This document shows, one piece after another, positions 23,341-48,592 of a stretch of 64,000 nucleotides of DNA; within the stretch, counting starts at the first letter, position 1; each line of letters opens with the position of its first letter. A model generated the notes under the pieces. That model did no database searches. It was not told where the DNA came from and saw only the letters and a program-made list of their open reading frames with translations. Source of the DNA: Folioceros fuciformis (taxonomy: Eukaryota); NCBI GenBank assembly GCA_049999805.1, contig JBNGIO010006289.1, forward strand, positions 601,141 through 665,140. Direction: 5' to 3'. Both the position numbers and the translations under genes were made by a program.

Positions 23341-25265
23341 ATGAGGCGTGTGCACGGATTGCGGGAGGTGAGCTCCTGGCTGCGCTCCGCGCTGTGCGCG
23401 CCCTCCACCAGCAGCAGCCATGGAGCTGCCGCGACTCTGCTGCAACAACAGCGTGGTTACGCTGCCGATTCCTCCCCGATCTCCATCGACATCGCTGTTC
23501 CTTTCAAGGCTCACAAATGTGAGCCTCCCAGCCAGCAGGTGACCACCAGCGGGGAGGAGCTCCTGGGGTTCTTCCGGACAATGTTTGTGATGCGCAGGAT
23601 GGAGATCGCCGCTGATTCCTTGTACAAGAGCAAATTTATCCGCGGATTTTGCCACCTGTACGACGGCCAGGAGGCGGTGTGCGTGGGAATGGAGGCCTCG
23701 CTCACCCCCAAGGACTGCGTCATCACTGCCTACCGAGACCACTGTACACACCTCGGTCGCGGGGGTACGCTCCTCGAGGTTTTTGCCGAGTTGATGGGCC
23801 GGAAAGACGGCTGTTCTTTGGGGAAAGGAGGCTCCATGCACATGTACAAGAAGTCGGGGGGCTTCTACGGCGGCAACGGGATTGTCGGTGCGCAAACGCC
23901 CCTGGGTGCTGGCCTTGCCTTTGCGCAGAAGTATCTCAAGGTGGAAGGCGTTACTCTCACTCTCTATGGGGACGGGGCTGCGAATCAGGGTCAGCTGTTT
24001 GAGGCCATGAATATGGCCGCTCTGTGGGATCTACCTGTTATTTTCGTTTGCGAGAACAACCACTGTGAGTTGGCGCTGCTCTCCGCCTCTCGCTCCATTC
24101 TCTCTCTCAGTTTGGATGTGTGACGGATTGGTCAAGCAGTTTCAAGCTGATCCGACTGGGATTTCTTCCTTTTTTTTCGTGCAGATGGAATGGGGACAGC
24201 GGAGTGGCGCTCAGCGAAGAGTCCCGAGTATTACAGTCGAGGCGACTATGTGCCTGGTCTCAAGGTTAGGTTTTGCCTGTATAAATTGGTTGGTGACTAT
24301 GAGACCAATGTTCTCACGACCCAATTCCCCAAGTTTGGTGTCTCGTCTCTGTTCATTGTCTTGTGCATCTGACGGAGTGCCTGTATCCTTGATAATTCTC
24401 AGGTGGATGGTATGGATGCCCTAGCAGTGAAGCAGGCCGTGAACTATGCTAGAAGTCATGCACTTACCAAAGGCCCATTTGTAAGAGCCTGCAAATCCCG
24501 AAGACAGGATTTTTGATTGATTTGTTACCACGTTCCTTGACTCAACTGACAAGGTTGGGCAAACAGGTGATGGAAATGGATACGTACAGATATCATGGAC
24601 ACTCCATGTCAGATCCTGGTAGCACGTACCGAACAAGAGATGAGATTGCTGGAATCCGGCAGGTCTGGTTTAAACACGTCGGCCTTTGAAGGCACAGGAG
24701 TGCTGCACCAGCATGATCATCAGATGGATTAACCATATCTGTTTGCTTGCATGAGCAGGAACGTGATCCCATTGAGAGAATAAGGAAGTTACTGCTGGCC
24801 CATGATATCGTCACAGCAAATGACATCAAGGTACCCTTGCTCCGGTTTCCTGATTGCAATCTGGTTTTTGACACTTCCATATGCTAACTTCGTGTTCACG
24901 TCTCTTAGAATATCGAGAAGGAAGCCAAGAAGGAGGTCGACGATGCACTAGCTAAAGCTAAGGTTTGATCGTCAGTTTGATCAATTTGGTCCTCGATCTT
25001 GCTAAGCATTTTGTTTGGTTCCCTTTCTGAGGGTTCTCTTGTTGTTGTGGCTATTTCATCTCAGGAAAGCCCGCAACCAGACCCCTCGGAACTTTTCTCA
25101 AACATCTATGTCAAAGGTCTGGGGGCGGAGGTAAGGGGGCACTTCATGCTTCAGAGGTTTTTGCAATTACTATGGTCTTTGTTAGCATCGAGATCTCATT
25201 TCACTCTTGAATGTGCACAGGCATATGGGTGTGACCGCAAGGAAGTTGTTGTGACGCTGCCGTGA
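23341..25265 (+). CDS. Pyruvate dehydrogenase E1 alpha subunit, mitochondrial, canonical land-plant type (8 exons)
   Basis: [82 protein letters not shown] and a C-terminal [12 protein letters not shown]. Confidence 0.96.
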
Positions 25266-25886
25266 GCAATCAGCAACCCATTTCATTTTTCGTTGTTTAA
25301 GTCCCTAAACTGCGTTTAGGAGCATGCCAAATGTACCAAGGGCGGGTAGACGGTGTCCAATGTGGTTGGAGCTTCAGGGTAGTGGTGGCCTGTTCGCACA
25401 CGTACTCGATTTGGTCAAATCTATATCTAATTTAGAGTTGAATGTACGTCATTTGCCTGACGTCATTGGTCGTCTGTGTCATTGATGCACAGGAGTCCTA
25501 GTGAGAAAGCGCCTAACAATCGCGATAAATTAAGAGAGAATGTTCCCAGCTGGACAGTTAACCTCTGCATATTCCATTCACTTTAGATCTTTGAGTACTC
25601 CAACGATTGTGAAACACAGGGCTAAGCGGTGCTCTATCTCACTACCTGTGCTAATGGGAATTAGGACGACTAGCATAGAAGGGGAAATTAATTTCCACTT
25701 TATGTATACTTGCCTTCATCAGCTATGTGTCTCGGCTAGGTCCTATAAATCAAATATTGAAGTAAATCATATGCCTTCATGGTCATGATAGGGACTACAA
25801 ATCCAAGGAAGCATGCACGTACATGGGTGGCAAGCGCAACGGCTAAAGTGCACGCCAGGATGCCCCCAATTGGGGCATTGCTCACA

Positions 25887-28800
25887 CTACATCCGTAGAT
25901 AACGGCTTCCAAAGGCATCGTCCTTTTCAGCTTGTTGCTTCTTGAGCCTGTGCCAGAACCCACCAAGTTGTGTTGCTTCCGACTAGGTAACGGAAAACTG
26001 AAATAGTCCAGTCAGCTGTAACACCATTGGCTTTCTGTAATAACTGCTTACCTTACATTCCGCTCCTCTCGAGCATAAAGAGCTTCCATCTCTTTATCAG
26101 TTAGCTGCTCAACTACAGGTTCAAATGAGTCCCAGTCGTTTCTACGCCTGAAGCCAACAAGATTAGAGAGAAAATGGTCGGTGGAAACGAATGGAGATGC
26201 AACTGTAAATAACGGCGGCACAAGATTTACCTCACGACACTTATCTTATTGTTTGGTCTTCGCATGAGGTTCAAAGCTGTAGTTGGGGGGTTGCTGCATG
26301 ACATGTTATTGATGTGAGTAAAGTCTGAAAAAACATAAATCGACGACTACATCGAGCACAATCCCCACTCTCATTGTACCTTGACGCGCTATAATCTACA
26401 CCCCTCTCTCTGCGGGCTTTTTTACTGATGCGAGAGTCTCGTCCAGACGAGGATATTTGCTTGTTTATCTGCTGGCCAGACAAAATTAGTCCGCTGACAA
26501 TTTACAATGTAAGCGCCTCATCGAAAGGAAAAGTCTAAATACTGGTGGAATGAGCGGCTTGCGGAAAGACAAGACAATGGTACAACGTACACGGTGACAA
26601 AACCTTACCTCATGTATTTGTTCCCGGATTGACAGGGCGATCGCAGGCTGCAAGCAAAGCGAGTACGAGTTCCTGAGTACAACGTCCTCTAGCTCCAAAG
26701 AGGTTCAGTCAACATAAGGAACCCGTTCACGGCAAACAGGCAACCTTACTGCAATCTCAGGGTCCTCCAGCTCAAGGTCCTGACACATACGTCTGGCGAA
26801 CTCCTCAGGGTTAGCGTCCGGATTGTTCACATCCTGTAAATAACCACCATCCATGACTTATGGACCTGAGATGTTACGCAGATACATCCTTGAGATCTGC
26901 AGTGCAAATGAGTTGACCCACCCACAGAAAATGGTCGTGTATGAGAGTTCTGTTCACCCGAAGATCGAGCTGCAATTGCACGACATTACTGTTAGGAACC
27001 ACCTTCACTTTGACTGCCAAGCTTGCTAGTCGAACTCCCACTGAGAAACATGGGTTAACACAAAAGGTGTGGGCAGGAACTAACATCCAAGGCTGGGAAC
27101 ATTCTTTTCTAAACCCAAAACCCAAATCACATACCTTCATCATCTGAACCTTCTCTTCCGTGCTCGGTCTTTGATTATCTGTGGCTCGATACTCGGCTAA
27201 TTGTGTCTGTCAAGTGGCAAAATGTTCAGTCTAGATTGCCATAGCAAGCCTGGCCAAGAAAGTAACATCCCAGCCTCGGCAAAAAATGGGAAAGAGATGA
27301 AAAGAGTTCCAAACGTGGGATAAACAACAACTGAGAAAGAAAAGCAAGATTCACCTGCATAGATTGAGCAATGTAATGTCCAAATGCGATAGGAAGGTTC
27401 ATGTCCTTAGTAAGCCGTCGAACGAAAGGCACAATCTCGGAGTCCGGATCTGTCAAATGAACAGAGCTTCACCTATTCAGAGTCTGCTAGCTAAATGCAG
27501 ATGAGCCTGCTTCAAACTTCACCTCAGAACCTGAGCCAGGAACAAGACATGAAGACGATAGCATACCATCTGCATTCCAAGAAAATACATCCTTGTAGCG
27601 TTGCCCGTCAGCTTCAATGTCCAACCTGATGGGAATTAGGTTGTCCACGGGCGGCCTGCAGTTGAACCCCAACATAAGCTCACTGCAACCTCCAGAGGCA
27701 GACATGCGCACGGGTATGAGAAGGCTCACTCGGCTGGCTTGGGGGGAAAGTCTATGCGGAGGTTGGCAGCAGCGCTGGGTCTGCTCTGCCGTGACTTCTC
27801 CTTGCGGGCCTGAATCTGGTTGCTGTCTGCCTCTCGCTGCAAGAGTGCCTGCGGAAACACTTCCTGCTGCTGTTCCTGCCTTTGATGATGCTGTTGCTCC
27901 TGCTGGCGCTCCTTTTGCTGTTGCTGGGCCTCCTCTTGTGATTGTTGCTGCTGATCCAGTTCCATAGCCTGCTCTTGCGGTTGCTGCCGCTTCTGGGCGT
28001 CTTCTTGTGGTCGTCGCTGAGGATGAGCTTCTTCTTGTGGTTGCTGCCGCTGCTGGGCTTCCTCTTGTGGTTGCTGAAACTGCTTAGTCTCCTCTTGCGG
28101 TTGCTGATGAGGATGGGCTTCTTCTTGTGGTTCCTGCCGCTGCTGGGCTTCTTCTTGTGGTTGCTGAATATGCTTGGTCTCCTCTTGCGGTTGCTGCCGC
28201 TGCTGGGCTTCCTCTTGTGGTTCCTGAAGCTGCTTAGTCTGCTCTTGTGGTTGCTCCTGAGGATGGGCTTCTTCTTGTGGTTCCTGCCGCTGCTGGGCAT
28301 CTTCTTGTGGTTGCTGAAGCTGCTGGGTCTCCTCTTGTGGTTGCTGGCGCTGCTGGGCTTTCTCATGTGGTTGCTGAAGCTGCTTAGTCTCCTCTTGTGG
28401 TTGCTGCCGCTGCTGGGCCTCCTCTAATGGTTGCTGTAGCTGCTGGGCCTCCTCTACTGGTTGCCGCAGCTGCTGGGCCTCCTCTACTGGTTGCTGCCGC
28501 TGCTGGGTCTCCTCTAGTGGTTGCTGCGGCTGGTGGCCCTTCTCTAGTGGTTGCTGGCGCTGCTGGGTCTTCTCTAGTGGTTGCTGGCGCTGCTGGGTCT
28601 TCTCTAGTGGTTGCTGCCGCTGCTGGGCCTCCTCCGCTGATTGCTGCAGCTGCTGGGCCTCCTCCAGTGGTTGCTGGCGCAGCTGGACCCCTTCTTTTGG
28701 CTGTTGCTGCTCATCCTGATCCAGTTCCATGGCCTGCTCTTGTGTTTGCTGCTGCTGCTGCTGCTGGCGGGCCTCCTCTTCTGGTCTCCATTGCTGATCC

Positions 28801-29912
28801 AGTTCCACTGCCTCCTTTTGTGGAGGCTGCTGCTGGTGCTCCAATTCCATTGGTTGCTGGGCCCCGTCTTGTGGTTGCTGCTGCTGCAGGTCCAGTTCCA
28901 TTGGTTGCTGGGCCCCGTCTTGTGGTTGCTGCTGCTGCAGGTCCATTTCCATTGGTTGCTGGGCCCCGTCTTGTGGTTGCTGCTGCTGCAGGTACAGTTC
29001 CATTAGCTGCCCTTGCGGTTGTTGCTGCTGCTGGTTCAGTTCAATTGGCTGCTCTTGCGGTTGTTGCTGCCGCTCATCCAGTTGATCCAGTTCCATTGTC
29101 TGGTCTTGCGGTTGTTGCTGCTGCTCATCCAGTTCCATTGCCTGTTCTTGCGGTTGCTGCTGCTCCTCCCCTTGCGGTGGCTCCTCCTGCCGTGCCTCCT
29201 CCGGTGGTTCCCCCTGCTGTAGCGGTCCCTCCTCTTGCGGAGGCCGCTGCTGTTGAAGTGCCTCCTCCAGTGGTCGCTCCTGCTGCTGTACTGCATACTC
29301 TTGAGGTGGCTCCAGCTTCTGACTCTGCTCTTTCTGTGGCTCTTCCTCCTGCTGCACTGTCTGCTCTTGGGGTGGCTCCCCCTGCTCCTGCTCCTGCATT
29401 GCTGGCTCCTGTGCTGCTTCCTCCTGCTGGTGCTGCTCTGCCAGTTCTTGTGCTGACTCCTGCTCCTGCTGCGGTGCCCCCTCTCGAGGAGCTTCCTGTG
29501 GGCCCAGGTGTGCCTGCACTTCTGGAGGTTCTTGCCGCTGCTGCGCCTCATGTTGAGGAGATTGCTGCGGGTTCTGCAATGCCTGCTCTTGTGAAGGTTG
29601 TTGTTGCTGCTGTGCCTCCTCTTGTGGTAGCACCTCCTGCTCCTGCTGTTGTTCCTCCTTTCGTGGCGGAACCTGCTCCTCCTGCTGAGCGTCCTCTCCT
29701 GGTAGGTCCTGTTCCTGCTGCAACTGATGCCCAACCGGTGTTGGAGAGTCGTGCTGCTGCAGCTCCAATTGTGAGGCTTTCAGGTCACGACCACCATCCT
29801 TCCCCTCCTCCTCCTCCTCCTCCTCTTCCCCGGTCTGCTCACATGCCTCACCATCCCCAAAGCCGCCCACGTCGCCCGTCCCTCCATCACCTCCTTCCAC
29901 GGTAATCGCCAT
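25887..29912 (-). CDS. BSH: SNF5/BUSHY SWI/SNF core subunit with a very long Q/E/P-repeat N-terminal extension
   Basis: Core exons (27655 down to 25887) encode NLIPIRLDIEADGQRYKDVFSWN, LDLRVNRTLIHDHFLWD, PEEFARRMCQDLELEDPEI, AIALSIREQI and FEPVVEQLT..EALYAREERN. Exon 1 (29912 to ~27730) joins in frame via GA|gtgagc...ctgcag|G. Final exon reads RLKKQQAEKDDAFGSRYLRM*. Confidence 0.9.
27950..29160 (-). repeat. Coding minisatellite array (30-nt and 51-nt units) in BSH exon 1
   Basis: About 20 or more 10-aa units (EEAQQRQQPL/Q type) at ~27960-28680 and ~3 copies of a 17-aa unit (MELDLQQQQPQDGAQQP) at ~28830-28990, plus shorter MELD-Q(n)-PQ variants. Confidence 0.95.
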
Positions 29913-30927
29913 CGCGCGCTTGAACCACACTCCGCGCTATTTCCTCTCTCGACGCTTCGTGCTTGCAGAGCGGGGTAGATAAAATAGAACAACCCAAACC
30001 CAAAGGTGAATTCACGAAATTTTCATACCTTGGTTTAGGTCACTGTAAGTCACTCACGACAGAAGCAACCAACACCAACACTTAGTAATGCATATTTGTT
30101 ATCTATCAAGTCACAGAAAATATATACATAGGTGCACCCATCTACACCTACTTCATCGGGAAAATGGGGGGAAGAAAAGGACTGAGGGGGAGAGACGCTC
30201 GGTACATATGTACGTCTCTTCGCTTACTTTCAACTATGTACCAACCTACGCTTGGATATCCATGTGCATGGAAGGTGAGGGATCGAGCGCGGAGAGGTGA
30301 CGGGAATGGGATATCGGGGATGCATCTTCACAAGGCCCCGCCAGGTACATGACATGTGTGGGAGCTCCGATGTATCGCACGAGAGCACGGCACCGGCAGG
30401 CGAGGAACATGTTGCGCAACTATGGCTGGCGCTGGCACCTTGGGACGCTGACAGTACGTGATGCGAAGTAGTAATGTATGAACAGTCTAAGGCGCACCTA
30501 CAACCTAGGTTTCATCTCCCGAGCTTCCAGGAAGCATCTCCCTCCAGCCTCCTAATTCCTAAATCTGCGGTCTCCGGGGCAGCCTGGAGCGTTGCCTCCT
30601 CCAAATTCGCGCTCTCCTCGGCTTCCGCATGCTCTCGGCTCCCCCCAGCCCATGTTAGCCCTGCCGCCTCCGCCTCCGCCTGCGCCTCTTCCTCCTCCTC
30701 CGCCTCCCTCCGACTTGGTAATGTGTGCGCTATCGAACTGTAGATGAGTTGAACGGTTTCGCTTTTATTATGTCTTGGCAAGTTGGCTCACGATGTGCAC
30801 AATTTGCATTTTGCGCAGTCTTGGCTTCTGGCGGTAGGGAAGGAACGTTGCTTACAGGCATTGACTCTGACTCTCTTCATTAGAGGGCTTGTGTAAGGGA
30901 GTGTGGAGGTGACGAGGGGGTGCGGAA

Positions 30928-32446
30928 ATGACGCACACGCACACGCACACGCACACGCACACGCACACGGTGAGGCCAAGGTCGGGAGCTGCTGCTGAAG
31001 AAGAGAGCGCTCCACGCCCAGGCCAGCCTCGTCCAGGAGTCCAGGCTCTTGTGGAGAGGGGAATTCAGATGGTGCCCGAGGCGTACATACGGCCCGTGAA
31101 CCAGCGGCCTCTGCTGGGACCAAGCCATCCCAATGGCTGCTTCCGGATCACCACTGCGGGCAAAATTCCGGTTGTCGACCTGGCCAGGCTCAGCGACAGC
31201 GACGGCACCATAGGCCGCAAGCAGACTATGAAGGCCATCGCTCGTGCTTGTGAGGAGTGGGGCTTCTTTCAGGTGCGCTCCCTACCCTGCACTTGTCTAC
31301 AAGCTTTCATCTTCGATGCACCCGCACTGGTAGCGGCTAATGTGTGTGGCTAGATCGATCGTACTCTGATAATGCAATGCTGCGCATGCGGGATTATGGC
31401 AGGTGATCAACCATGGCATCCCTGATCATGTGCTGGACGACACGCTGGATCTGGCTAAGCGATTCTTCAGCCTGCCGTTGAGGGAAAAGGCCACGTACAA
31501 CTCGGGCCCGGGGGCAGATCCGTCTGTCCATCCCAGCTCCGGAAGCTTTGGTTCTACTTTCCCTCCTGCGCAGGATTCGGCTCTGGACTGGAGGGATGTG
31601 CTCCAACACTGCTTCATCAACGATGACGCCACAGATGACAAACGACAGTGGCCGTCCAAGCCACAAGCTTACAAGTGAACACCATTGCCAGCCAGCGCGC
31701 TTCATTCAACTGTGACCACTGCGACTCATTGTTTACTCACCCCTCTTCTATCTTGCTTGCAGGCAGATCATGCTCAAGTATCGAGAGGCGATAACAGGTT
31801 TGGCTGAGCGCCTGCTTGCAACAGTGGCGCAAAATTTGGGTCTCGAAGGCGATCACATCCACCGCCTTGTAGGCAAGTCCACAAGCCTGGTCAACCTCAT
31901 ACAGTATCCACAGTGTCCAGAACCGGAGCTTGTTTTGGGAGTGAGAGGTCATTCCGATCCGTCCGTCATTTCGCTCCTCCTCCAAGACGAGGTTGGAGGC
32001 TTGGAAGTCCGTGCCAAGGACGGCCAGTGGGTGTTGCTGCAACCTATTCCGCGAGCCATTGTCGTGAACACTGGCGACATTTTGCAGGTATGGAATCGCG
32101 ACCCCGTGATTTGTACAGTACGGGAATATTACATATGCCAGGTTCTCGTGTTTCATTGCTGGTACTGACCGGTGCAATCGATGCGCTGCAAACGTTGCAG
32201 GTCATCAGCAATGGCAGGTATCCTAGCGTGGAACATCGTGTCGTAGTGAACGGCATGCAGTCTCGACTGTCTGTCTCGACATACCACTGTCCACATTCCG
32301 ATTCCAAAATCGGTCCTGCGCCGGGACTGACGACCGAAGATCAGCCTGCTCGCTACAGAGACTTCTACTTCTCCGAGTACGTGAACGAATTGTACAATCT
32401 CCAAAGCACTCGAAATCCATCACTGGAGTCGTTCTACATCCACTAG
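30928..32446 (+). CDS. 2-oxoglutarate/Fe(II)-dependent dioxygenase (DOXC type), 4 exons
   Basis: Exons ~30928-31272, 31403-31674, 31763-32087, 32201-32446. IPVVDL, ACEEWGFFQVINHG, LDWRD, Fe ligands HSD (RGHSDP) and distal H (VEHRVVVN), and the 2OG-binding RLS motif. Confidence 0.93.
30931..30969 (+). repeat. (ACGCAC)n hexanucleotide microsatellite immediately after the ATG, encoding (Thr-His)6
   Basis: ATG ACGCAC ACGCAC ... is directly visible, ~6.5 copies. Confidence 0.9.
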
Positions 32447-37905: not shown

Positions 37906-39873
37906 TTACTCCTCACTATTCAATGCCATCTGCCTCTTCAAGTCCAGTGTCATATCCACCCCGGGTACTGCTCCTGGCTTAAAAAGGCGAGGATGTGGAA
38001 CCCCTAAACCTGCGCAAATGGTCCGAATTATCTCAGAGGCCACTTCTCCCACGTCCAGCTCGTTCAACGTGACGGCTATGGAATAGTTGTGCACTGGATC
38101 GCATATGGCTGTGCTCCCTCCCAGTCCCGAATGACCGAATGGCAACACCTTAGCGTCGGTTTGTGACTCGTCCCACGGGAGTGTGTACAAACCCAGTCCG
38201 AAGACGCCCCCTGGCAGCACATACCGGCTGTACTCCCCCCGGCCAATCATGGCTTGCAGGAACTTCGGGCTGGTAAACAGCGACTTGTCGTCGTGGTTCT
38301 TGTCGCCGTTTGCAGGGAGTGGTGAGTTGCTTTCATCCGCGGCTGATGGTAGCTGCGGGTGGCTGTCCAGAGGTGGCTCGCTTGTCGATGAAGATTCTGG
38401 AATCTTACCACCAGCTGCCAACATCGCATAGTACCTGGCTAGTGCTCTGGCAGAGAAGTGGCCATTGGCAGCTGGCACAATTCCTCGTCGTATTCTCAAA
38501 TCATTGAACAGCGTTTCTGTGGCGGCGACGATGTCGCCGACAGGCCCTGCAACATCCGGATTTCGCATCACCGCTTTCAGACCTTCATTCACAATGCTGA
38601 TCGATGCCAACCGAGATTCCACACCTGCAGGACTCGTGAAACGATGAGGAGTGAGTTGCGGAGCTTACAAAGGAAGCATCACACGTGTGCCCCACAGAAC
38701 GGAAGTTACCGTGTGGTATGCCTACGTAGGCTTCCCCACTTATCCCCAGTGGCTTCGTGAAAGTCTCCGCCAGGAAATCTTGAAACGACTTCTTGGATAC
38801 CCTCTGAATTTCACGGGGCAGATCATGTCAATCCATAGATGTTTCTGACCAGCAGAAACCATCGTCAGCCAAATGGAAAATCCGTTATGGCTCTTATACC
38901 TCGATGATACCCCCACAGAGCCAGCCAAACGACATGGCATGATAAACTTGTGCACGGCCAGGTGGGATTAACGGTTTCGCTGCCGCAGTGCGCCTCACAC
39001 ATTCTTGAAAATCGCTCATCAGAAACGGATCTTCCCTCATATCTTCTGCGAGAGCAGTCCATAAACCCGCTGTGTGATTAAGAACATGTGCAACCTGCAT
39101 CACACAATCAACTTCCGTTAGACACGAATTGACTGAATGGAAAGCATTCGTATGACGAGACACATACAAACTCCAGCACTTTCACATACCGTTATCTTCT
39201 CCTTTCCGTTCACTCCAAACTCTGGCCATAAGTCAACCACCTTATCATCGAAATTCAAAGCCCTGGGGAAACAGAGATGCGCCTATTAGGAAAGCCCTAT
39301 CGACAGGAAAGCTCACCAAACTACAGTTTATTGAAGAAGAAAAGAGCTTACCCGTGATCCACGAGCCAGTGAACAAGTCCAGCAACGACACCTTTTGTTG
39401 TAGAGAAGACTGGAAACAAACTGTCACGTCGGACCGGCCGAGGGTCCGACTTGCTCAGAACTCCGGCAGCTGTGTCAACAACCACTTTCCCATCCTTATA
39501 GACACACACCTACAGATCGGCAAGAAATCCTTTCAACTTCCTATAACACGATCGTGGAAGGAAGAAACAAATCATTAGGCGGGAATTGGTGATTTCCGAA
39601 TGAATCCACAGCAGCGTTCAACCTGAATGCCCAAGACTCGTTGCTGACGAGCCAGATCCACCAAAACTGCACGGACTTTTTCTTCCACTTCTGAAATGGC
39701 TGGTGTATCGAAGTGAAGGATACTGTCACTGCTCAAACAGGAGGCTGATGAGAAACCGAAGGTTTTGATGCCCCTTCATGCTTGCACTGGAGAAAAATCG
39801 GCCTCCTTACAGCTATATCAGCGTAGCGTACGTACCTTGTGACACTCACAGCAGCCTCTGCGGAAGAACTCAT
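37906..39873 (-). CDS. Stand-alone beta-lactamase-family (serine hydrolase) protein, ~460 aa, 7 coding exons; paralog of the C-terminal half of the gene at 43650-48592
   Basis: Exons ~39873-39836, 39730-39622, 39509-39353, 39264-39190, 39094-38900, 38803-38710, 38624-37906 splice into an open frame with SxxK (FSTTK), YHAMSFG, PAANGHFSARALARYYA and FGHSGLGGS. Start codon is inferred. Confidence 0.85.
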
Positions 39874-46600: not shown

Positions 46601-48592
46601 GAAACCGAAGACAGAGTACGAAGCTTGTTGCGGGAGTTGGGTCGTCAGCAACGCGTTTTGGGCATTCAGGTTGGATGCTACTTCGGATCTCAGAACCTCC
46701 AAACCATGCACTTCTTTTTTTATCGCTGTTTACGGTCTTCACGTAGTATGAGTGTCTATTGTTGGCGTAAGATGTCTGAAGGAGGTTTCATGTTCATGTG
46801 TAGGTCTGTGTCTATAAAGATGGGAAAGTTATCATTGACACAGCTGCTGGGGTACTCGGAAAGTTTGACCCCAGGCCAGTTCAACCCGACAGTTTGTTTC
46901 CAGCCTTTTCCACAACTAAAGGGGTGACAGCTGGGCTCGTCCACTGGCTCCTTGATCATGGGTAAATCTTCATTGTTTGTTGGTACGGATGACAGCTTCA
47001 AGGGCAATTTACGTGCTGGTGCCTAATGTGGGTGTTGGCTTGTACACCAGGGCTCTGAATTTGGGTGATAAGGTGTCTGACTTGTGGCCAGAGTTTGGCG
47101 TGAACGGAAAAGAAAGTTGCACGGTACGGAAACCTTCTACGTCGCCGTGGATGATGGTATGGAGTCACTCAGTTTCGGTGATGTTGGCGAACTTGTTTGT
47201 TTGATGCAGGTCGCACATGTTCTTAATCATACAGCGGGTTTACAAAATGCTCTCTCGGAGGTGATGAAGGCAGAACCCCTTGTGATCTGCAACTTTGAAG
47301 ATTGTGTAAGTCGGATTGCAGCAGCAGAGCCAGCAAGCCCACCTGGTAGTCAACAGACTTATCATGCGATGTCATTTGGCTGGATTTGTGGAGGCATCAT
47401 CGAGGTACTGGAATCAACTGGGATTGCCCTGTTGTGTAAGAGGATGGGTGCTCGTTCTTGTGAAATCCTGGAACAAAGCATTTTACTTGTGACCGGCGAG
47501 ATCTTAGGATGATTGACTGTCAAATGCAGAGGGCATCCAAGAAGTCGTTTAAAGATTTCTTGGAGCAGACATTCACGAAACCATTGGGAGTCTCTGGGGA
47601 ATTCTACATAGGCATCCCACCCGGTAAGCCATGTGTCTGTGGGGAAAGCTTCCGGTGCTCTGCAAATTCTTCCACTGACCAGTCATATTCTCTTGTTCCT
47701 GACAGGGGTAGAATCTCGTCTGGCGTCGCTCACCCTTGACAGTGAGGAGCTGAAAAGGATCTTGACGCAGGACCAAGCTGCAGCAGCTATGAAGCGTTTC
47801 ATGGGAAATGGCCTCTCAACATCGGCTGGAGCTGAGCATGAGGAGGAGAAGCAGGAGCCATCCGCAGCAGCGGCACCGCCGTCCCTCTTCCTGCAAAGTA
47901 GAGTAGGAGACATGGGTGGTGTCCTCTCTTCTGCAGTGACCCTTTTCAATGCTTTGTTCATCCGACGAGCAGTGGTGCCTGCTGCTAATGGTCACTTCTC
48001 GGCCAGAGCACTAGCTCGTTTTTATGCAATGCTGGCAGCTGGGGGTAAGATTCCAGAAACTTCGTCATCAAGCGAGCCTCCATTAGGCAGCCACTCACAG
48101 GTGCCGTCAGTATCACCCGCCAGCGGCAAGAAGCGGGAGCGAGGATCTGGGAAAAGCAGCTCACGAACCTCCACTCCCGGGGACACAACGGGGGTAGCAT
48201 CGGAGGACTCGAAGCAGCTGTTCTCCAGCCCCAAGATCTTTCACGCAGCTGCGGGCACAGGGGAGTTCAGCCATCATGTAGTGAAAGGAGGGCAATTCGG
48301 ACTTGGGTTTATCCGCCTTCCCTCGGAGACGTCTGGCGATGAAGAGGGGGTGTTGCCGTTCGGACATTCCGGCATGGGAGGCAGCACAGCCTTCTGTGAT
48401 CCTGAGCACAACTTCGCCATAGCCATCACGCTGAACAGGCTCAATCGTGGCGACGTGGCCGGGGAGATTGTGCGACTGGTTTGCAGGGAGCTAGGCATCC
48501 CGTGTCCACTCCGCTTTGCAGAAGGAGCAAATCGCGGCGTAGACATGACACTAGAGTTGGAGGCAGGTGTGGGCACAGACGCCATCGTCTAA
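43650..48592 (+). CDS. ABC1/UbiB atypical kinase fused to a C-terminal beta-lactamase-family domain, multi-exon
   Basis: MGWG start, GLWVKAGQYLSTRADVLP, PIATASIAQVHRA, VVVKVQH, PKELDFNLEA, LVLEYMDG, GFFNADPHPGNFLV, LLDFGLTK; then FSTTK (SxxK), YHAMSFG and FGHSGMGGS. This architecture matches the known plant ABC1K-beta-lactamase fusion. Confidence 0.94.

Follow-up and report, generated by a model that had tools for sequence, protein, structure and literature searches.

The 64,000-nucleotide stretch of contig JBNGIO010006289.1 analysed here (the window) contains, on its minus strand, a gene of the SNF5/BSH family whose product carries an acidic, glutamine-rich arm of approximately 700 amino acids in front of the conserved SNF5 core. 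It is a real, expressed, single-copy BSH, and an arm of this kind is shared by one relative. Plant BSH (BUSHY; Arabidopsis AT3G17590) has been taken as a bare SNF5 core, whereas here the sole BSH is about four times longer. The slot before the core is occupied by a winged helix in animals, by a pH-sensing Gln-rich chain in ascomycete yeasts and by nothing in most plants; in this gene it holds an acidic repeat arm.

With RNA fixing the exon boundaries, the locus divides into 11 exons separated by 10 GT-AG introns, each 74-165 nt long (Table 1). The spliced model encodes 972 amino acids (113.7 kDa, pI 4.4) and has one stop codon, the terminal one at 25887. In particular, the coding part of exon 1 runs stop-free from an ATG at 29912, with G at both -3 and +4, to 27730 (2183 nt, that is, 727 codons plus 2 nt), and intron 1 joins it in frame to exon 2 at 27655. 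The five other frames across 27730-29912 contain 5-23 stops each. Moreover, none of 1000 dinucleotide shuffles reached an open frame of 727 codons (median 227, maximum 561), a result that merely rules out base composition as the origin of the frame; shuffling destroys the three-base period. A stop-free first exon of 2.2 kb joined in frame to a SNF5 core had been proposed from the sequence alone (the original prediction), and both the frame and the spliced RNA bear this out. The long arm is likewise real, but the sizes first given, ~725 amino acids for the arm and ~1000 for the product, are corrected to ~700 and 972, the last ~27 codons of exon 1 corresponding to the normal plant leader.

Three sequencing runs were compared. 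X1 yielded 15 contigs, all at least 99% alike, whereas X2 and X3 yielded none, which is no proof of absence. X1 is not on record as RNA; it was judged to be RNA because it contains spliced joints and because its introns are empty, the depth of five bins over introns 1-5 being the value expected from exons alone. Of its 11 joints, 10 correspond to the introns of the gene and the remaining one to a minor, alternative donor of intron 6. The intron 1 joint sits in a contig of depth 175 that includes 340 nt of exon 1 (27729-28068, back to codon 615), and the repeat exon is thus spliced to the SNF5 core; the earlier concern that it might never be joined to the SNF5 exons is removed by this joint. 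Other contigs in exon 1 lie at 28269-28568 (depth 114), 28587-28874 (68) and 28964-29789 (95), and the four contigs listed cover at least 1753 of the 2183 nt (80%). This expression evidence comes from one run of one study, for which the RNA strand is not given. The sole difference between RNA and genome is a C>T change on the plus strand at window position 29731, in the second base of codon 61 (Gly to Glu), which is probably an allele. The minor donor of intron 6 (26648-26749) lies 5 nt downstream, has a depth of 22.5 vs 116.3 and would shift the frame; another X1 contig, of depth 20.9, retains intron 6.

It is very probable that a full-length transcript including the whole of exon 1 is made. 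Depth over upstream exon 1 (68-114) is of the same order as over the core (175-276), and introns 1-5 are empty. Each of the six inner contig ends lies within sequence made of repeated 31-mers, where assemblies of this kind break. These observations, together with a frame that is open from codon 1 and begins at an ATG with G at -3 and +4, make it distinctly unlikely that the protein is mostly a shorter form, started inside the repeats with an arm of 80-550 amino acids, the upstream RNA then stemming from a minor or separate transcript. Such a form could use the in-frame ATGs at codons 172, 259-395 and 650, internal ATGs having a purine at -3 or G at +4, and the called protein of the relative P0004, described below, has an arm of 145 amino acids. 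The RNA pieces would also fit it: among the X1 contigs listed, none spans the whole of exon 1, the intron 1 contig stops at codon 615, and 29790-30111 is uncovered, which leaves the first 41 codons, including the ATG, outside their cover. The gaps at 28069-28268 and 29790-30111 were not counted as evidence. Transcription starting only near 27.8-28.0 kb, which had been named as a result that would overturn the original prediction, is unlikely given RNA up to 29789, although no single molecule excludes it.

The core itself is intact. Exon 2 matches the SNF5 domain with 29.9 bits against a Pfam PF04855 cut-off of 21.8, exon 6 reaches 21.7 bits, and four other BSH exons tested singly against Pfam gave no match. 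A profile of 16 short plant and algal BSH proteins matches residues 729-969 (whole-sequence E 1.8e-113). Two tandem repeats, each consisting of strands followed by two helices, are seen in the predicted model of P0004, whose core is 82% identical, rather than of the window's protein, and in both sequence and fold the P0004 core matches those of SMARCB1, Snf5 and Sfh1. The C-terminal region aligns with that of other plants and weakly with SMARCB1 (5.2 bits), a helix is predicted there in P0004, and residues 925-972 are slightly acidic overall. SMARCB1/INI1 and yeast Sfh1 share with the window's protein repeats 1 and 2, a C-terminal helix (predicted in P0004) and extra sequence before repeat 1 (their cores start near residues 182 and 203). 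In SMARCB1, however, that extra sequence is described as a folded winged-helix domain (PMC9332782), whereas here it is a repeat arm predicted to be disordered, and no Pfam match was found in exon 1. The same source describes the C-terminal helix of SMARCB1 as binding the nucleosome acidic patch (PMC9332782). Arabidopsis BSH is reported to be specific to MINU complexes (10.1101/2022.11.24.517835), and by its sequence the core described here should likewise enter a plant MINU-type (PBAF-like) SWI/SNF complex.

The gene is a member of the SNF5/BSH family and the only BSH copy found in the assembly (87 Mb, 7240 contigs). A Pfam PF04855 search returned one match and a tblastn-type search with liverwort BSH returned six, all in this locus; both were run exon by exon, and the assembly may be incomplete. 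Two loci of the SWI3-type SWIRM domain are present in the genome. The suggestion that the gene marks a specialised (e.g., germline) paralog beside a short BSH, or else that the exon is an assembly artefact, would have to lean on the fragmentation of the assembly and on the exon-by-exon design of the searches. Set against the outcome of both searches, and against RNA contigs whose identity to the repeats is at least 99%, a single base being different, it is barely credible. SWI3A/B has been reported to act in bryophyte reproduction (PMC8128824, PMC13190419; the available portions of these texts mention neither BSH nor SNF5), so that a germline role of the complex is possible; nothing links the arm to the germline.

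The search for relatives with exon 2 gave 59 matches. P0004, from a 2353-nt contig free of intron sequence, shows 82% identity over 261 aligned columns and bears a Gln/Glu-rich N-terminus of its own that is 145 amino acids long or longer. Only the 25 residues before the intron can be aligned between the two arms. Their compositions are close: in P0004 and the window, respectively, Gln makes up 30 and 34% and Glu 18 and 19%, and each residue carries on average a net charge of -0.138 and -0.156. In both, the last part of the arm is a predicted helix followed by a basic linker, the helix lying at 103-131 in the P0004 model. The P0004 protein ends at the intron 10 point, as intron 10 retention would give. 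A search with the P0004 core returned 22 matches, namely P0004 itself, 18 plant or algal proteins of 222-276 amino acids and three distant ones of 471-634 amino acids, two of which are named Rhizopus. The 18 short proteins come from liverworts, Sphagnum, Selaginella, Chara, Mesotaenium and seed plants, and the window's core is 41-64% identical to 23 other plant and algal rows over the whole core. In the comparison of BSH N-termini across bryophytes and algae that the original prediction had called for, P0004 is the one relative found with an arm, a second bearer that the original prediction had not foreseen.

Other searches added little. Relatives of 691-2000 amino acids were sought with the P0004 core, and none was found among 1083 candidates, a weak result in that exon 1 of the window and five more of its frames are missing from the collection as well. 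A word-indexed search with the exon 2 frame gave no candidate, the query being too short for this to count as evidence, and atlas searches were uninformative (exon 2 matches below 0.9 and unrelated; no usable match for exon 1). The lineage's exon 2 motif was present in no stretch of the metagenome contigs. Among candidates set aside, P0006 looks like a chance match, the long leaders of P0026, P0027, P0028 and P0031 look like intron or upstream read-throughs, and P0051 has an N-terminus that is not of the plant type.

Plant BSH proteins have the same two SNF5 repeats and C-terminal region, are encoded by a single gene and share the inferred position of intron 1; they differ in length (222-276 amino acids, 242 in an Arabidopsis isoform, against 972 with the acidic arm here) and in the segment before repeat 1. 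Among 80 rows with the first-strand motif, many of them near-duplicates, 42 have F-(R/K)-(M/L/I)-P before the first strand, preceded by leaders of 18-63 amino acids (at most 26 in 38 of the 42). F-R-M-P, which typifies plant rows and not the whole family, is kept from Chara to flowering plants and is absent in both arm-bearing species, where a Pro-rich linker stands instead. According to Protein Data Bank titles only, the human segment before repeat 1 contacts a SWI3-type SWIRM domain. In 22 further rows, one of which is the window's own frame, intron-like sequence is read through into R-P, and P0058 shows both ends; therefore, a phase-2 intron appears, from the proteins, to lie at the same spot in other plants. 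Because the position of intron 1 is shared and plant leaders are short, the arm is best explained, on sequence grounds, as an expansion of an ancestral short first exon, not as the result of fusion with a neighbouring gene.

A tree built from 21 rows places the window's protein among plant and algal BSH and groups it with P0004 (100/100) in a clade distinct from mosses, liverworts, Selaginella and seed plants. Four of the 25 rows (P0035, P0072, P0077 and P0078) were left out as partial or redundant, and the tree does not settle the order of the land-plant groups. Its stem measures 0.44 for this clade, longer than that of any other land-plant group included (0.10-0.33). The genome also contains a gene of the LCIB family (two matches on one contig, above the cut-off), and LCIB is reported from hornworts and from no other sequenced land plants (PMC8075897). 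Because of the separate clade and the LCIB gene, the arm-bearing lineage is probably that of hornworts.

The arm is built of nested tandem repeats at 27894-29687 (Tandem Repeats Finder), with periods of 30, 51, 42, 93, 15, 33, 39 and 21 nt, all multiples of three. The repeat DNA occurs in the assembly at this locus only (three of three places; six of six pattern matches), and identical 31-mers in exon 1 show recent duplication. Residues 1-700 comprise 34% Gln, 19% Glu, 22% Asp/Glu and 10% Pro, with 15 His (2.1%) and six aromatic residues; the fraction of charged residues is 0.28 and the net charge per residue -0.156. A weak match of the plant BSH profile to residues 647-705 was rejected as a composition artefact. 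A single-sequence model of exon 1 places 615 of 727 residues below 50 in predicted local distance difference test score, with one long helix at 643-708; as low scores are expected without an alignment, the model is merely consistent with an arm that is mostly disordered. No comparable Gln/Glu frame turned up elsewhere in the window (1 of 164 frames) or at the two SWI3-type loci, the baseline covering 64 kb and three further loci. On condensate formation and histone binding, both named as possible roles in the original prediction, the composition adds one observation, namely that aromatic residues number just six in 700. Splicing, composition, the model and the short relatives together support the proposal of an acidic, Gln-rich, lineage-specific disordered arm on an intact SNF5 core.

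Budding-yeast Snf5 also has a long Gln-rich disordered segment before repeat 1 (its core starts from residue 454 of 905), and in yeast this region and its histidines have been reported to mediate pH-dependent recruitment by an acidic activator (PMC8890752). The original prediction had pointed to scattered His in the arm and to the pH sensing ascribed to the yeast histidines; on a yeast-like view, the histidines of the arm would shift charge with nuclear pH and thereby switch the binding of transcription activators. The subunit and the end are indeed the same, the Gln content is above the middle of the fungal range of 18-43% (PMC8890752), and His reaches 4.1% in the P0004 arm (6 in 145 amino acids). 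At least 25% Gln, an N-terminal position and, in the model, disorder are found here as in the yeast-type regions; His enrichment and charge depletion are not. In particular, the 15 His in 700 residues of the window's arm are not an excess over the baseline of 2.45% given by six other window frames, and the computed net charge moves from -108 at pH 7.5 to -101 at pH 6.5 and -95 at pH 6.0. The published mechanism is tied by its authors to charge depletion, such regions being without Lys, Arg and Glu and the Gln-rich parts depleted of Glu (PMC8890752), whereas the arm described here is 22% acidic, is made of clear tandem units and, as a polyanion, should repel acidic activators. A yeast-like pH sensor is therefore highly unlikely. 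The same source places the probable gain of the fungal arm on the branch to Ascomycota (PMC8890752), and therefore the yeast and plant arms would have arisen separately.

Recognition by sequence is less likely still. The arm has 10 copies of a MELD-like motif (span 27965-29138) in an acidic, Gln-rich context, and an activation domain or motif array of this kind could recruit co-activators or another partner; however, the known 145 amino acids of the P0004 arm contain no such motif, and six aromatic residues in 700 are few for such a role. The motif may resemble the MELT repeats of kinetochore KNL1 in a phosphomimetic form.

The explanation tentatively preferred is that the arm is a disordered polyanion that acts through its composition, most likely on histones. 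An ancestral first exon of ~20 codons would have grown by in-frame tandem duplication into the ~700-amino-acid arm, which would work via bulk composition and not via sequence. Action of this kind is proposed because, between the window and P0004, composition has been kept while sequence has not, as in the functional fungal arm, for which poor sequence conservation and retained composition are described (PMC8890752). The tethered polyanion might make numerous weak contacts with basic partners; histones or their tails, at the nucleosome under remodelling, are the most plausible of these, and the protein's own C-terminal helix is the other one proposed. Repelled by DNA and by acidic activators, the arm could tune where and for how long the complex acts. 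Binding to histones is suggested by analogy with histone chaperones. Acidic disordered tracts of nucleoplasmin, Spt6 and FACT are reported to bind histones, and those of nucleoplasmin, Spt6 and FACT Spt16 resemble the arm as long disordered polyanions on chromatin proteins; they share no homology with it, its charge is thinly spread among Gln and Pro, and the comparison is one of composition alone. In favour of a function, two species have retained the arm with similar charge and the same kind of ending, the genome is compact, and nothing comparable lies elsewhere in the window or in the two SWI3-type loci. A more specific version is unlikely: the arm would be a built-in histone chaperone, or else an acidic-patch mimic that holds the protein's own C-terminal helix until the nucleosome displaces it, with its length tuned between species by repeat number. 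In this version, hornworts would have equipped their only SNF5 subunit with a regulatory arm independently of yeasts, at the end where yeasts carry theirs and with opposite chemistry.

A close rival to the histone-binding polyanion, and a real possibility, is tolerated repeat growth. Here, the arm would be translated and do little, slippage and unequal crossing-over would have acted at a protruding position, and selection would keep only the frame open and the chain soluble. Several observations favour such growth, and two of them, the synonymous counts and the Physcomitrium listing, also weigh against the preferred explanation. In the decamer array, 5 of 17 changes are synonymous against 21 of 66 possible single changes (p 0.68), so there is no synonymous preference; a count of stop avoidance (0 of 7 vs 26 of 83, p 0.08) is circular, as the frame was chosen as open, and was not used. 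The arms of the two species are unalignable despite cores that are 82% identical, the identical 31-mers point to recent duplication, and the stem of the clade is the longest in the tree. A survey of SWI/SNF subunits lists Physcomitrium without SMARCB (PMC9170682), which suggests that constraint on the subunit may be loose in bryophytes. The polyanion explanation is further weakened in that the shared composition could stem from slippage of CAG/GAG repeats alone, that the arm's charge density (-0.16 per residue) is diluted by Gln, that a single arm-bearing relative was found, and that the RNA pieces listed, as described above, neither span exon 1 nor reach its ATG. Neutral growth, for its part, has to accommodate the similar charge and the helix-plus-basic-linker ending kept in two species, and an arm that makes a single-copy protein three times as long in a compact genome. 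The yeast arm likewise seemed dispensable in steady growth and was reported to matter only after starvation (PMC8890752).

Whichever applies, the lineage offers a natural test of the role of the slot before the SNF5 core, and bears on whether a remodeller's disordered region is kept for its composition or merely tolerated; if neutral, the arm is a striking yet ordinary repeat expansion. The survey of SWI/SNF subunits cited above, which includes Anthoceros agrestis, describes SMARCB, in the portion available, only as a single SNF5 domain (PMC9170682). No paper on a long plant BSH was found in the literature searched, most subscription journals lying outside the search, and public hornwort gene models may contain the long BSH protein uncommented.

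Table 1. Parts of the BSH gene in window coordinates, with the evidence for each
Feature	Position	Strand	Evidence
Exon 1 coding part, arm and linker to core	27730..29912	-	Frame analysis; RNA contigs cover at least 1753 of 2183 nt
Residues 1-50, head of Gly, Asp and Glu that includes a run of eight Glu (net charge of -0.28 per residue)	29763..29912	-	Composition; listed RNA reaches codon 42
Residues 51-255, degenerate Gln/Glu/Pro repeats	29148..29762	-	Repeat search; one RNA contig covers it
Residues 256-409, units of 42-51 nt, each with acidic-hydrophobic MELD-like motif (9 of 10 copies)	28686..29147	-	Repeats
Residues 410-649, ~24 units of 30 nt, consensus decamer QQRQQPQEEA	27966..28685	-	Repeat search; no match at any other locus
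Residues 643-708, predicted long Gln/Glu helix; P0004 has a predicted helix at the same place	27789..27986	-	Models only
Residues 701-727, basic then Pro-rich linker	27730..27812	-	Sole part of exon 1 alignable with P0004 (17 of 25 identical)
Intron 1, 74 nt, GT..AG, phase 2	27656..27729	-	RNA joint; same protein position as intron 1 has, by inference, in BSH genes of other plants
Exon 2, start of SNF5 repeat 1	27567..27655	-	Pfam PF04855 E 5.9e-07; RNA joints
Exon 3	27355..27449	-	RNA joints, spliced model
Exon 4	27135..27206	-	RNA joints, spliced model
Exon 5, start of SNF5 repeat 2	26922..26969	-	RNA joints, spliced model
Exon 6	26750..26833	-	Pfam PF04855 E 1.9e-04, 21.7 bits vs cut-off 21.8; RNA joints
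Exon 7	26609..26647	-	RNA joints, spliced model
Exon 8	26380..26468	-	RNA joints, spliced model
Exon 9	26231..26293	-	RNA joints, spliced model
Exon 10, start of C-terminal helix region	26052..26147	-	RNA joints, alignment with plants
Exon 11, coding part to stop codon	25887..25947	-	RNA joints, spliced model

RNA from the same run also lies outside the coding region on both sides of the gene. The X1 contig with the last BSH exons is 2199 nt long and reaches ~1460 nt past 25500, toward a converging pyruvate dehydrogenase E1-alpha gene, which suggests that the 3' ends of the two genes overlap. On the other side, between the diverging BSH and 2OG-Fe(II) oxygenase genes, a 711-nt contig of depth 51.5 runs from 30112 past 30600 (30112-30822). 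The frames under it are short, up to 90 amino acids, and no Rfam match was found at 25000-31500; this RNA may come from a small gene, or it may be a non-coding transcript or a long leader of the BSH or the oxygenase gene. A perfect (ACGCAC)6.5 repeat at 30931-30969 encodes a Thr-His run where the oxygenase gene probably starts. Finally, two related frames with long shared stretches, at 37906-38568 and 47789-48592, lie on opposite strands 10 kb apart and look like the last exons of a duplicated gene.

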